This document shows, piece by piece, positions 7,478 to 21,597 of a stretch of DNA of 64,000 nt. Each line of letters starts with the position of its first letter. The stretch's first letter is position 1. The position numbers were made by a program, and so were the translations under genes. The DNA is taken from positions 16,926 to 80,925 of the IMG/VR virus record IMGVR_UViG_3300032288_003949; one strand, 5' to 3'. Under the pieces are notes generated by a model that worked only from the letters and a program-made list of their open reading frames with translations, ran no database searches and was not told the origin of the DNA. The DNA comes from a virus.

Positions 7478-7785
7478 CCACGCTTCAGACAGACACCTTG
7501 CGGGCCATTTCCGCCGATTCCTACGAATGGGATTCGGAGGCGGAGGGGAATGTTGGCGCGTCGAAGGGTCGCGGTTTCATCATTGTGCGGCGGGATGCTC
7601 CTGTTAAGGACATCCTGCTCGCCAATGGCCGTCCAGGAGCCGGATCTCCTGTTCTTGCGGAGGTCTGGCTGGAGGCTCGCGGCGCGATGCGGATCAACTT
7701 CACCGTGACGGAAGATCTGGAGGGCATTGACCCGATTGAGTTCTCTGGCCTGCTGGAGCGGGCCGAGAACGAACTCTGTTCCTAG
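7474..7785 (+). CDS. Hypothetical protein
   Basis: GTGA coupling; converges on the 1781-aa gene. Confidence 0.65.
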   Translation: MTTLQTDTLRAISADSYEWDSEAEGNVGASKGRGFIIVRRDAPVKDILLANGRPGAGSPVLAEVWLEARGAMRINFTVTEDLEGIDPIEFSGLLERAENELCS

Positions 7786-19600: not shown

Positions 19601-21597
19601 ATGCTGCGGTCTACGACATTTCCGTTCGCGTCCTTTATCGGCGCTTCGACTGCGATCTGGACTTCTCCCGCTTCGTCATAGCCCACATCGATGACCTTGC
19701 CTGAGAAGGGTTCGGTTCTGCCCCCGACTCTGACTGCATCGCCCTTGCTCCATTCCATCTCTGGAAGCTCAATCTCAGGTGTGATCACCGCAGCGCCAGG
19801 ACCACCTGGGTTTACCATGAAGTCAGTTTCCATTTCCCCCTTTGGGCCGCTGCCAAGCTGCTGCAGCATGCCGCGCACAATGTCTTGGGCTCTCGTTTGG
19901 CTTATGCCTTCGGCTTTGGCGACATATTTCGCAAGCTCAGCGATTCGATCTTCAGTTTTCGTGTAGGACATTGAGAGCCTTTCAAGCAGCTCTTTCCGAT
20001 CCTCCACAGGCACTTGACCTGTTTCCAGCACTCGCAGGAGTGCGGCTCTCTGCGGCCTGTATGTGCCTTGAATCCACTGATCGTCTGGGTTCGCGGCTAC
20101 ATGCCGCAGCAGGTCATAGTCGCCGTCAAGGGCTGCCTGCTCAATCGTGACCATGTGCGCGATTTCTTCTGTGAGCGCCTCTTCTAGTGCGAACGCAGTC
20201 CTATTAGTGGGATCGTTGTATTCCGCCATGCTGATTGAGCTCACAGCGTGGGTCATTTCGTGGTTAATCGTTCGCAGCGCGTTGTAGTAGTCCGACAGTT
20301 CGTTCGGTGTCGGTTCCTGTCCGGCTGCCCGCAGGTCACGCACTCGTTCGATGCTGGCTTGCTCCCATTCCCCGATGAAGATGAGCGACGCGCCGTCTTC
20401 GCCTAGGTGTTCGCCACCAACACTTGGCAGGTTTGGTTTCTTCTTGTCCCTTTTCTTCGTTCCCCACACGACTGGCGTAATTTCGCCGCCATACTGCTTC
20501 GCAAGCTCAGTCAGTCTGCTTTGAGCGCGTTCCACGGCGGCTGGTGCGCCCCCGTATTGTGCGGCGGCTGTTGCCATCTTCGCGAGCGGCCCCTTTCCAG
20601 CAGGACTTTTCATCCCATCCTCTAGGTCGGGTGCTGTGATCGTTCTCTGGTTGCCGCGTCCCACCACATTCGGTGCGTCTGCACCCATGAGCCGTCGCAG
20701 GATCTCGGCGAGGCTGACGCGGGGGGCGAAGCCACCACGCTTAGGCATGAACCTTCCGCCCCAAATCGTTCCCTTCGGGTAGCGTCGGTTCCATTGGAGT
20801 TCCATAAGATCTGTCTCGTCGTAGACCTTGGCTTCTGTCAGGTTGTATCTCGCTCGGATCTCTTGAGCACGGGCTTCGGCATCGGTTGTGTCTGGCAGGG
20901 CGGCACCCATGTATCCCATACCGATGGCTTCGTCCCTCGTGAGCAGGTCACATCTGCATCCCGTATGCACGGGCGGATGTGTCACATCCAGAACGCTCCA
21001 CGGCCACCATCCGACGGCTGCCATCGCTACGCAGTCCGGCGTGTGCTCCTTGACATTCGGGCTCATGATCCAGTAGGCCCCATCTGGGCTGAGTTCGCGG
21101 ACCAGTTCCCTGCGGAGCGTGGCTTGGACGCGGGCAGCCACAGCGTCGTCGTGCTGTGCCATGTATCGTTCTTCACGGTCGAAGACTGCATCTACGGCAG
21201 CGAGCGGTAGTGGCTTCTGCAGGGCTTCGGGGATGTCGCGCAGGAGTCGCTCGCGCATCTTGTCGATGAAGGCCGCTTCCCTATCGGCTTCTTTCGCTGC
21301 TTCTTCAGCAATCCGCTGATCTGTGACTTCTTCTTCGGTGAACTCTGGTCTTACCACCTGTTCGATCCATCCCGTGCCGCGCCGGAATGCGACAACGGCA
21401 GCCATCAGCGCAGCTATGAGCGATGCGGTTCTGGCCGACTCAGCGCCCGCTTGCGCCAACTGAGCTTCGCCGGTTGTCTGACCCTTGTCCTTGCGGTTTG
21501 CCAGATTTCCGGCGGCTGCTGCCGCGAGTATGGCTTCTGTGTCGTCCTTGGCGCGGTCAATGGCCTTGCGGCTTCTCTTACTTGCGGACGATGGCAT
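13618..21597 (-). CDS. 2659-aa MuF (head morphogenesis) fusion carrying zincin, ART-like and PI3/4-kinase/HipA-like domains separated by M-[AKR]-S-P motifs
   Basis: MuF motif HTPDC..HPPVHTGCRC; HEMTH..EEALTE; LWRGQ..GWS..REF; LFRGQ..GWS..EKEI; DRHMGN..IDHD; GGSN..VKAY..ANWD..DN..LDQGG; downstream of portal. Confidence 0.9.
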   Translation of the reverse strand: MPSSASKRSRKAIDRAKDDTEAILAAAAAGNLANRKDKGQTTGEAQLAQAGAESARTASLIAALMAAVVAFRRGTGWIEQVVRPEFTEEEVTDQRIAEEAAKEADREAAFIDKMRERLLRDIPEALQKPLPLAAVDAVFDREERYMAQHDDAVAARVQATLRRELVRELSPDGAYWIMSPNVKEHTPDCVAMAAVGWWPWSVLDVTHPPVHTGCRCDLLTRDEAIGMGYMGAALPDTTDAEARAQEIRARYNLTEAKVYDETDLMELQWNRRYPKGTIWGGRFMPKRGGFAPRVSLAEILRRLMGADAPNVVGRGNQRTITAPDLEDGMKSPAGKGPLAKMATAAAQYGGAPAAVERAQSRLTELAKQYGGEITPVVWGTKKRDKKKPNLPSVGGEHLGEDGASLIFIGEWEQASIERVRDLRAAGQEPTPNELSDYYNALRTINHEMTHAVSSISMAEYNDPTNRTAFALEEALTEEIAHMVTIEQAALDGDYDLLRHVAANPDDQWIQGTYRPQRAALLRVLETGQVPVEDRKELLERLSMSYTKTEDRIAELAKYVAKAEGISQTRAQDIVRGMLQQLGSGPKGEMETDFMVNPGGPGAAVITPEIELPEMEWSKGDAVRVGGRTEPFSGKVIDVGYDEAGEVQIAVEAPIKDANGNVVDRSIRYPNMADVKKVGSARKKTLRGKKVTGRLREGDKVRIKAKNGDIQVGTLEKVVAVDNNGFSADVRMQTGQVKRWQDSAVTDIRRAKADTRSRKAPKTTTEKILGGEDRVTPKKVSGPLGYDPRRYSDPKRALIRKVQALQPGNELELADGSVVFRGDKGSALIERPDGTRKRYATPNRLANAESAGIEQRVGPRSMASPMDGDPKDRKSLARQLASDAALDEFKAMASPASYEGSRDDPEHLRRAAAIVQRWQENPDMALKNSSEEEVNALLWEVNNGKIDTYKTEEGLLWRGQAVQHDEPKGNRIRGWSERLETALEFARSGPEVRKRDGTGIRKTSVAGAVDGLDPGDKAIISLYEITGGKGVEIKDLLEQAEMAREAGYEEMRSKIGNENQAEIIREFITSPKGYDVSLPDLDDFEIVYLAERLGIEVPPEGPEREDWILSAQSGSSRAKEIADALVQMFQADGMGAVEEILHDTNADLDGAYNTAERRWIRTEMEARASATGDYSLADPVVNEYEDEAEFIMDGGSLEGYRRIDILLATGDEGPIPTKDGVKYEDNAETWLRAKVREALEDGGYKPEQKVSDEQLTLEQDTLASSLDQDFVPADPDEDTLYDSEGLMRPTAVIAAVLQQDDPNNTEFDGFASHAWNNYYGGGVGPLKAIKNASREDMEQTLSKLQEIRAKAGEGPAGDETLNMREALQRAIDVLSESMDDYFGKPDTKDTETALVATGMASPAVIEPKRAYEGDLFAQLGQHMAYRFDETTFGSAFSGTLEKDLPDIDEAAGKLGWPQELIAAAKKMRQNALDKRMELVEKANRGFGKSMAQAVAAQPLQNFYESPEGAMASPVGPRLRSDEAMLSEVASGMSLDALKDGQGPVENFLRGALNGIGIDPYDIDMDKLTSHADDAEHAPISRLVVGGRGVSPCGLSRRVDFAVHVLLPELLVERYPRVAETLRRTSPRWGWRTGELPTGIGRPTDRELQTERARAELGDAMRSPATYQPAQKHDELVDTGIQAWVGSAKAKPEYQDALDALAWEIENNGESFDGQVLFRGQSRFLPAPSESGYRGWSADPGQGLHFGTHGYSDGSATVTVYVTQNGKGIDVAKRVEAMDKEKSPMNPTTRSIALMEKEIILSPDSIDEQRIVIEVSAEERGKPGYRDRMIRKIQEEAGVMDDVLAADKARFEQAMASPVYRRERTKFKQAVESMKSPNQTPKMNISEQELTDRVVDIAVQYQSGSFYDVASVTAAKVGDTDVLVRPFYNNRDWGSPNAKITVDGHDEAPNLAAEKVADILGVPVASVATRLVGNEESLAALKKVDEGNQQRLADNPTNPRTRNVVVDVGGERGYLQEIDWDNNLATFRSLEGQQEREISLDQVRIPELIQQELKVNGERLPTVAGSGVLDLQEDETRNSPAFQNLAILDDIIGNTDRHMGNLLVHKQYETIPNTVFYAIDHDLSFGSGERYEKIRERELGYTDGTGATLVQSLPATLSDSQREAVTRIATDTDFHDELKNIIPVDSPSREVWNQRVDEMVQRAQRLLGTGSMASPVEMASPMASPNIFNLLKGNKGKEDDLGRSMLEAPPEPVEGIPEYTDVELQDIKGAGGSNDARIAEDPDGNKWLVKAYRGDSDRVATELLANAIYRDLGVTVSNAGVGISRHPTYGDQIAVTYPLVDGEQRRWSEPNADLAEGFVADALLANWDVIGLTQDNILWNGDQPVRLDQGGTLEFRAQGERKSFGSVPTELWTMQSGRGQANGRMEITEAGMQAGAKDAALRLTPERIDELVDAAPFKDEAMRERIRTSLKERVAWLERFSRGEEGIPEPLQGDEITDYFEQREFPSLPEEDLAMEAYLGDDRTAIDDHLRSGAPKEEATEEIADTIATLDELFRSPMSKTDEDMTAWAVLPEPLENPEDLEGEWMADKSYLPLQTDFAPTPGVVAVKVQIPAGSSVVMPAAEGLDAPDGALLMGRNTKLQIQAVLQENGAVILQAVSVPR

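Follow-up and report, generated by a model that had tools for sequence, protein, structure and literature searches.

Three giant proteins in the head-gene region of an uncultured phage

The stretch of DNA analysed here (the window, 64,000 nucleotides) is part of the linear, 80,925-bp IMG/VR record IMGVR_UViG_3300032288_003949, which is about 68% complete according to CheckV. Its head-gene region encodes giant proteins that are punctuated by a short peptide word, M-[AKR]-S-P, and these proteins and their word are the subject of this analysis. An initial annotation, made from the letters alone, had named two such giants. Both are confirmed: P1, a giant open reading frame (ORF) of 2659 amino acids (aa) with 11 words (13618..21597, minus strand), and P2, of 1781 aa with four words (7782..13127, minus strand), which comes after it. 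The pair was incomplete, as a six-frame scan of the whole record adds a third giant ORF, P3, of 3786 aa with 24 M-x-S-P words (genome 7306-18666, or 306-11666 of locus L002, minus strand). The first 580 codons of P3 correspond to window 1..1741 (minus strand) and the remainder lies to the left of the window. Coordinates below are those of the window unless another frame is named.

Transcription across the head-gene region runs from right to left, with terL first (35726-37450, phrog_675) and the capsid gene last. The portal gene (24057-26102, phrog_10963) is followed 2.5 kb downstream by the P1 gene. The three giants, which make up about 30% of the recovered genome, have the portal gene on one side and the scaffold and capsid genes on the other. 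The terL, portal and capsid genes give the giants a phage context. The terL product is at most 23% identical to that of any cultured phage, the genome has no nucleotide match to cultured phages (megablast), and in tblastn against cultured phages the C-terminal domain of P1 is the only part that is matched and P2 is without a match. Judged by these comparisons, the source is an uncultured tailed phage that is distant from the cultured ones. The stretch from portal to capsid is the usual location of genes for head-internal proteins, and from gene position alone the giants would be packaged into the head.

A peptide word confined to the giants

All 11 copies of M-[AKR]-S-P in P1 and all four in P2 are found where the initial annotation had placed them. 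Amino-acid composition predicts 0.047 copies for P1 and 0.035 for P2, or 0.08 for the 15 copies together. P3 adds 19 copies of M-[AK]-S-P and five of M-[EQ]-S-P from residue 865 onward; they cut residues 865-3786 into modules of about 70-440 aa, and the N-terminal 864 residues are without the word. Counted in the wider form M-x-[ST]-P, the three giants (8,226 residues) hold 39 words against 1.5 expected, whereas all other predicted proteins (17,935 residues) hold 3 against 3.0 expected, which is the chance level. The comparison with the rest of the proteome that had been proposed for the motif thus favours it. Among the non-giant proteins there is no copy of M-[AKR]-S-P, and in the proteome count the word is missing from the capsid protein, the portal and a 401-aa scaffold-like protein.

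The 34 copies of M-[AKR]-S-P give a clear consensus. The residue before the Met is G in 20, A in five, S in four and P in three; the x position is A in 30, K in three and R in one; and the residue after the Pro is A in 18, V in six, N in five and M in three. Around the word, positions -5 to +9 are enriched in Pro and Gly (fraction 0.31 versus 0.147 in the background) and contain few hydrophobic residues. Where words come as doubles or triples the copies are spaced 4-9 residues apart.

As had been claimed, the codons vary between copies and Ser is drawn from both of its codon families: it is AGT or AGC at the words beginning at 20602, 19006 and 17395, and TCN at the other P1 and P2 copies. The Ala, Ser/Thr and Pro codons of the word vary freely in P1, in P2 and in the gene of a P1 relative at an IMG/VR locus (L003), which indicates that selection acts on the peptide. 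The proposal that conservation is at the peptide level therefore holds for P1 and P2. For the P3 words the uniformity extends to the DNA: 15 of the 18 MASP sites read GGC ATG GCA TCG CC(C), a homogenised stretch of about 14 nucleotides, and the pair GCA-TCG is expected at about 8% per site from codon usage. This uniformity of the P3 seams could reflect a recent amplification of cassettes or gene conversion.

Architecture of P1, P2 and P3

A search of 5.8 billion proteins returned six relatives of P1 (P0004-P0009) with 39-47% identity over the conserved ends. Scans of sequence collections returned one IMG/VR locus that ends at the gene (L003) and two short metagenome loci (L004 and L005); they returned nothing in GTDB genomes and, for the P2 relative P0115, nothing in IMG/VR. 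Pfam, PHROGs and NCBIfam give almost no matches on the giants, and the description that follows leans on motifs and on homology among these proteins. All features of P1 and P2 given here are on the minus strand.

P1 consists, in order, of an N-terminal MuF-like region, a zincin-like metallopeptidase, a conserved middle, variable cassettes and a conserved C-terminal kinase-like domain. The MuF-like signature, HTPDC...WWPW...PPVHTGCRCDLL (20941..21045, P1 185-219), is invariant in the relatives. When P1 was aligned with Mu gp30 by hhalign, just 'PPVHTGCRCDL' was paired with 'PPNGWNCRCRV', the PPxxxxCRC signature, at a weak E=0.1. The first word, G-MKSP-A (20602..20613, residue 329), stands at the border of this region and the zincin, and the same joint is marked in P0004 (residue 349, MSTP) and P0009 (residue 352, MASP). 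The zincin (19798..20415, P1 about 395-600) contains the single HExxH of the protein, HEMTH at residues 446-450 (20248-20262), followed by LEEALTEE. It has no family in Pfam or NCBIfam, and a PDB sequence search with P1 returned no match. HExxH and LEEAxTEE are kept in all relatives, and in every one a zincin with HExxH and EExxTE sits directly behind the first junction.

The next word is S-MASP-M (19006..19017, residue 861), which has a counterpart in the same context in P0006 (G-MASP-A at 890). A-MASP-A (18916..18927, residue 891) opens the first copy of a domain that we call RGQ/GWS (18268..18927, P1 891-1110), and A-MRSP-A (16612..16623, residue 1659) opens the second (16255..16623, P1 1659-1781). 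Between the two copies are G-MASP-A (17395..17406, residue 1398) and A-MASP-V (17062..17073, residue 1509). The latter stands ahead of a 'DGxGPVE...IDPYD' module, and this module is preceded by MATP, MASP or QASP in P0004, P0006, P0009 and the L004 protein. The initial annotation had labelled domains of the giants as ADP-ribosyltransferase (ART)-like. The profile libraries do not bear the label out: no ART family was found in Pfam, PHROGs or NCBIfam for P1 891-1397, P1 1659-1852 or P2 123-407, and where phage records bear the annotation 'ADP-ribosyltransferase', what they match is the C-terminal kinase-like domain of P1 and not the RGQ/GWS modules.

Further on, A-MASP-V (16030..16041, residue 1853) is followed by S-MKSP-N (15973..15984, residue 1872), ahead of a PI3/PI4-kinase-like module. 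The matching segment (15217..15351, P1 2083-2127; also phrog_3162) is the sole Pfam match in P1 and reaches 27.6 bits for PI3_PI4_kinase (PF00454) against a cut-off of 27.1. Among the kinase-like domains previously proposed it is the only one with a kinase match. A triple of words, S-MASP-V (14959..14970, residue 2210), E-MASP-M (14941..14952, residue 2216) and P-MASP-N (14929..14940, residue 2220), abuts with its last member the conserved C-terminal domain (14050..14958, P1 2214-2516), which is kinase-like by motif only. The joint before this domain carries MATP in P0004 (2398), MKSP in P0006 (1927) and QASP in the L004 protein. The domain is kept in P0004-P0008 and L004 and is common to proteins of Gordonia, Pseudomonas, Yersinia and Actinomycetia phages. 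In the Actinomycetia phage DSL-LC01 (L006, OQ999401.1 52800-62669) a 3289-aa protein encoded beside the portal gene has this domain alone in common with P1. Both HExxH and the word are absent from the protein, which as a single case is given no weight.

P2 has all four words in its first 410 residues. A leader of about 75 aa is followed by G-MASP-A (12891..12902, residue 76), P-MASP-S (12864..12875, residue 85) and A-MASP-A (12750..12761, residue 123), then by one extra cassette, which includes a partial RGQ/GWS match (12444..12599, P2 177-228). The last word, G-MASP-A (11895..11906, residue 408), stands ahead of a conserved body of about 1370 aa without any word. Within this body a 13-residue sequence, YKSAYGSGGKYKH, occurs twice (7953-7991 and 8874-8912, residues 1406 and 1713); behind each copy come [DE]-K-[IV]-G and a beta-rich stretch that is alike in the two, and the pair is a candidate internal duplication.

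P3 has two PG_binding_1 domains near its N-terminus, one of them at residues 434-471. The module between its words at 1927 and 2085 is an almost end-to-end match to the 140-position phrog_20074 (positions 4-135). The P3 modules are not repeats of one another in a self-comparison (E<1e-6), and the idea that the word is merely a component of a tandemly repeated domain was rejected on this ground. A basic element of the HPR..GRF/W type lies upstream of the first word in all three giants: 'LHPRNRRGRF' in P2 (12925-12975), 'GGRFMPKRGGFAPR' in P1 (about 20680-20760) and 'KKHPRGRGGRW' in P3 (residues about 397-410). It may be a head-targeting or DNA-binding tag.

The word marks module boundaries and limits of cassette exchange

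No word falls inside any homology-delimited domain, and to this extent the claim that the motif occupies linkers and not domain cores is upheld. A profile built from RGQ/GWS copy 1 of P1 found 20 stretches in nine proteins that belong to MASP, MATP and QASP lineages. The projected domain start is at most 5 residues from a word in 19 of the 20, the exception being the partial P2 match, which is 13 off, and none of the 20 stretches contains a word. This domain-register test replaced a test based on the end points of BLAST high-scoring segment pairs, in which starts just after a word were in mild excess (18.5% vs 8.4%). Zeta_toxin modules in three relatives start 75-135 residues past a word, and none has a word inside it.

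Exchange of cassettes between close relatives respects the same limits. P0004 and P0005 are 92% identical over the first approximately 2,220 residues and 100% identical over the last 442. Their divergence starts directly past M-A-T-P-T (1740) and M-A-T-P-T-K-G-P (2208), and identity returns exactly at the Met of the next word. In a comparison of two P3 relatives, P0015 has two extra cassettes, P0014 has one, and one cassette is replaced; each boundary of these changes is a word. On the combined evidence of domain register and cassette turnover, the words are junction signals between modules that appear to evolve independently.

Lineage-specific versions of the word

The motif was predicted to recur at linkers in homologues, and it does: the same joints are marked in relatives, with versions that are specific to the lineage. 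P0006-P0009 each have 5-10 copies of M-x-[S/T]-P, mostly G-M-x-S-P, between differing cargo modules. P0004 and P0005 each have 9-10 copies of M-x-T-P, mostly [E/S/A]-M-A-T-P-T. The relative encoded at the metagenome locus L004 has no M-x-[ST]-P and seven Q-A-S-P at homologous joints, including those that precede the conserved C-terminal domain and the "DGxGPVE...DPYD" module.

The relatives of the other two giants follow suit. P0014 and P0015 have 15-16 copies of M-x-[S/T]-P, 12-13 of which are M-A-T-P-[T/S/G/I], and P0016, also related to P3, has 15 copies of M-x-S-P, 12 of them M-A-S-P and mostly [E/W]-M-A-S-P-[G/D]. In the P2 relatives the junctions number one or two and lie 70-120 residues in from the N-terminus, with M-L-T-P in P0115 and P0116, G-MASP-S in P0117 and G-MWSP-P in P0118; more distant P2 relatives are without the junction word. 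A short leader, a junction and a conserved body make up the plan of this family, as expected for a leader that would serve targeting and be removed.

All three giants of the present genome use MASP. In the MATP lineage the T-P form occurs in proteins of the P1 type (P0004 and P0005), the P3 type (P0014 and P0015) and the P2 type (P0115 and P0116). P0005, P0014 and P0115 each come from a contig of 31,680 bp, and we infer that they are co-resident on one contig. By these comparisons, the different giants of one lineage share one version of the word.

Zincins that accompany the word, and other proteases

Residues 330-640 of P1 were used to search the full library for related zincins (E<=1e-3). 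The 101 homologues are mostly found in proteins of 1,000-5,900 residues. G-M-x-S-P is present in P0032 (11 copies) and P0035 (6 copies), and G-Q-x-S-P in P0020, P0024, P0025 (QASP), P0026 and P0033 (5,304 aa, 25 copies); P0017 mixes G-QASP with two G-MASP in one protein. In a tree of the zincin domain all bearers of M/Q-x-S-P fall in one half, where an M clade that includes this phage is sister to a Q clade that includes one M bearer. This co-distribution of zincin and word is what a zincin that reads the word would predict, but it is no more than suggestive. In 13 sequences, including the M bearer in the Q clade, M bearers are told apart from Q bearers by one alignment column near the HExxH helix (P1 position 457); we regard it as a possible lead and not as evidence.

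More distant zincin giants (P0018, P0021, P0030, P0036, P0037 and P0072) are enriched in other words, far above expectation: DPGT (7-9 copies), SPGR (7-9 copies, also SPGT) and GMGAGK (13-17 copies). Junction codes in zincin giants may thus be widespread and diverse.

No prohead protease was recognised in the genome, of which the record holds about 68%, by PHROGs, Pfam, NCBIfam, a PDB sequence search or comparison with Mu gpI. Nor did any protease besides the P1 zincin come to light there. The sole other HExxH protein is basic, 172 aa long and without a family match, and carries HELTH (38590-39108, minus strand). It may be the protein that the initial annotation called SprT-like.

Neighbouring genes

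The 401-aa scaffold-like protein (L001 1910-3115, minus strand) has an N-terminal domain of about 190 aa without a family, followed by a long acidic coiled coil; a PDB sequence search returned non-significant matches only (E >= 0.049). Its gene is upstream of the genes for a head-decoration protein and then the major capsid protein (Phage_capsid_4). It could hide an unrecognised prohead protease.

Other genes are interleaved with the giants. A HARE-HTH gene (23210-23581) is between portal and P1, and DUF932 (3316-4404) and NUDIX hydrolase (2251-2889) genes are found beyond P2. NUDIX, DUF932 and HARE-HTH families are frequent companions of anti-restriction or polyvalent-protein loci. A block of eight small plus-strand genes (4872-7785) is inserted between P2 and the DUF932 gene and interrupts the otherwise minus-strand head-gene region. 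P3 is followed by the genes for a BppU_N-like protein and then a DNA ligase. Genes for baseplate, lysis, recombination and replication functions are found further to the right within the window.

Interpretation of the junction word

The reading that we favour is that the words are sites cleaved by the zincin embedded in P1, at the junctions of three giant polyproteins. We give it a probability of about 0.55. Four properties have to be accounted for, namely a peptide word found only in the giants, its position at boundaries, its concerted versions and the turnover of cassettes, and a reader that co-evolves with the word explains all four. A protease is the most economical reader in view of the embedded zincin, of the leader, junction and body plan of P2 and of the earlier prediction (Iyer et al. 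2017, PMC5512222) that polyvalent proteins are processed by the zincins embedded in them. The initial annotation had proposed a protease-recognition signal; what survives firmly of that proposal is a giant-specific boundary signal at the peptide level, conserved in relatives, with a zincin behind the first junction.

Under this reading the zincin just behind the first junction would cut P1 itself, and P2 and P3 in trans. Cutting at the approximately 39 sites would yield about 40 pieces, comprising enzyme-like modules, many small orphan modules and the N-terminal leader or anchor parts. If the cut falls at G|M-A-S-P, each piece would begin with an ordinary Met-Ala N-terminus, although the exact bond is a guess. 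Zincins usually prefer a long hydrophobic residue at the P1' substrate position, and a cut at G|M-A-S-P would fit this preference.

Several observations weigh against cleavage by the zincin. For this phage and for every relative we infer cleavage from sequence, and the identity of the protease, head packaging and delivery to the host likewise. A phospho-acceptor or a helix N-cap would account equally well for the invariant [S/T]-P core. Zincin and word share ancestry, so plain phylogeny also predicts their co-distribution, and a single M/Q switch within a clade has been seen. Individual sites are lost in some relatives, which implies that no single site is essential. PF04233 (Phage_Mu_F) gave no match in Pfam scans (E<=1) or in a six-frame search of the genome (E<=10). 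The MuF label first given to P1 thus lacks profile-library support, and since the signature alone could be aligned, "MuF-like" denotes a resemblance and not an established membership.

The remaining two points concern structure and DNA. AlphaFold2 models made without alignments have a mean pLDDT of 45 and 41, too poor for domain definition. The words fall in predicted coil at 30/32 and 26/28 residues (p of about 0.001 and 0.004) in these low-confidence models, a weak result because Gly and Pro favour coil in any case and because regions labelled ART-like were modelled as helices. The 11-mer ATGGCATCGCC occurs 17 times in the genome, always in frame and on the minus strand, against 0.06 expected; the copies are at genome 9309-16074 (P3) and at window 17062 and 18916, and their flanks are unconserved. 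The homogenisation in P3 points to a process that acts at the DNA level as well.

The word may be cut by a different enzyme: a protease of prohead maturation, some other protease of the phage, or one of the host that acts after ejection. In T4 and in phiKZ-like phages, short consensus words are where the prohead protease cuts many head-internal proteins, and the giants are encoded in the head-gene region between the portal and capsid genes. With the record only about 68% complete, the gene for such a protease could be missing, and the 401-aa protein, with its uncharacterised N-terminal domain and coiled coil upstream of the decoration and capsid genes, is a place where one might be found. However, no prohead protease family was recognised in the genome, and the capsid protein, the scaffold-like protein and the portal are without the word, unlike the usual substrates of a prohead protease. 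A host protease would not readily account for versions that are specific to phage lineages unless the hosts differ in step. We consider cleavage by any of these enzymes unlikely.

The word could also be an uncut structural and evolutionary seam, a Gly...Ser-Pro linker that is inherited together with the cassettes and whose uniformity is maintained through in-frame recombination or gene conversion. Where near-identical relatives have gained, lost or replaced cassettes, the change does start and stop at the word, and the homogenised seams of P3 are of the kind that such a process would leave. Ser-Pro is a good helix N-cap, and helices tend to begin just after the word in the low-confidence models. 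In P1, P2 and the L003 gene, however, the seam DNA is no more alike than the amino acids demand; recombination cannot keep those words alike, and selection on the peptide is left to do so. Nor does a pure linker need an invariant Met or Gln two positions before Ser/Thr-Pro, or versions that change in concert. As a full account the seam is improbable; it is compatible with cleavage and could be an additional role.

A third possibility is a linear motif that is bound or modified, by proline-directed Ser/Thr phosphorylation, which one of the kinase-like modules would carry out, or as a docking site for packaging, a chaperone or ejection. The invariant [S/T]-P core, with Ser and Thr interchanged between lineages, is consistent with it, as are the kinase-like C-terminal domain found throughout the family and the module at the Pfam PI3_PI4_kinase cut-off. 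Such a motif has no need to be at every boundary, to limit the cassettes or to keep a fixed register at the domain start, and double and triple copies 4-9 residues apart are better suited to redundant cut sites. We therefore hold this role to be quite improbable. Lastly, the ATG with which every copy here begins could be a place where translation starts internally, or a relic of the start codons of once-separate genes, which the commonness of Met-Ala-Ser as an N-terminus would suit. The idea was rejected and is all but excluded, since sister lineages have Gln (CAG/CAA) at these joints and P0017 mixes G-QASP with G-MASP; nothing upstream of the word is conserved beyond the Gly codon.

Cleavage of the giants at the word by the P1 zincin can be extended to a larger, tentative proposal. 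A large clade of uncultured phages may share a programmable polyprotein code in which the word [G]-[M/Q]-x-[S/T]-P and a zincin embedded in the portal-proximal giant co-evolve, giants loaded into the capsid give rise to dozens of effectors delivered with the DNA, and each junction doubles as a cassette joint. We regard this as possible and somewhat doubtful. If it were true, one element would couple the specificity of the protease to the shuffling of cassettes. Should the word be a cleavage site, these phages would deliver sets of small proteins, large and quickly reshuffled, with many orphans among them, and the orphan pieces could be anti-defence or takeover factors hidden in 'hypothetical' giants. 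The word would then be a simple means to split giants into functional units, and possibly one half of a new pair of sequence-specific protease and site.

Comparison with known systems

Among the closest processing systems are those of the prohead proteases. T4 gp21 cuts at L/I-x-E and the phiKZ-type gp175 at S/A/G-x-E. Short words in proteins of the head module are common to them and the giants, and several cuts per protein and the removal of N-terminal leaders would be. The word itself differs, and here no protease of this kind is recognised and the capsid and scaffold-like proteins are without the word. Also unlike the known prohead-protease cases are the number of sites, up to 24 per protein, and the strict pattern of one per boundary.

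Polyproteins made by RNA viruses of eukaryotes, cut after Gln by 3C-type proteases, resemble the giants in that one product contains an embedded protease and a junction word, an analogy that is also drawn in PMC5512222. Here too Gln or Met stands before a small residue in the word. The differences are that the present system belongs to a DNA phage, that its candidate protease is a metallopeptidase and not chymotrypsin-like, that no homology was found, and that cleavage is here a prediction.

MuF-fused polymorphic toxins and the 2811-aa MuF-C metallopeptidase protein gp47 of phi24B, a protein found in virions for which a role in ejection has been proposed (preprint 10.64898/2026.04.10.717836), share a layout with P1: a metallopeptidase and cargo come after an N-terminal region, which in P1 is MuF-like. 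Neither a junction word nor a processing map is reported for gp47, and the likeness of P1 to MuF is confined to the signature motif.

By architecture the giants probably belong with the phage polyvalent proteins (PMC5512222). Like these, they are giant phage proteins of many domains from the head-gene region, in which enzyme-like cassettes accompany a candidate zincin with HExxH, and P1 combines several unrelated domains: the zincin-like domain, the PI3/PI4-kinase-like module, RGQ/GWS and the shared C-terminal domain. The Pfam families of polyvalent-protein domains do not match them. That paper defines no cleavage or junction motif (the term 'linker' is absent from it, and its three uses of 'cleavage' specify no site), and in agreement with the initial annotation no published description of a junction word in such proteins was found in open-access papers and bioRxiv. 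In contrast to the polyvalent proteins described there, a word that changes with the lineage stands at almost every boundary, and it does so also in two giants that have no zincin of their own. With a defined word come concrete substrates and predicted products, and the prediction made in 2017 becomes directly testable.

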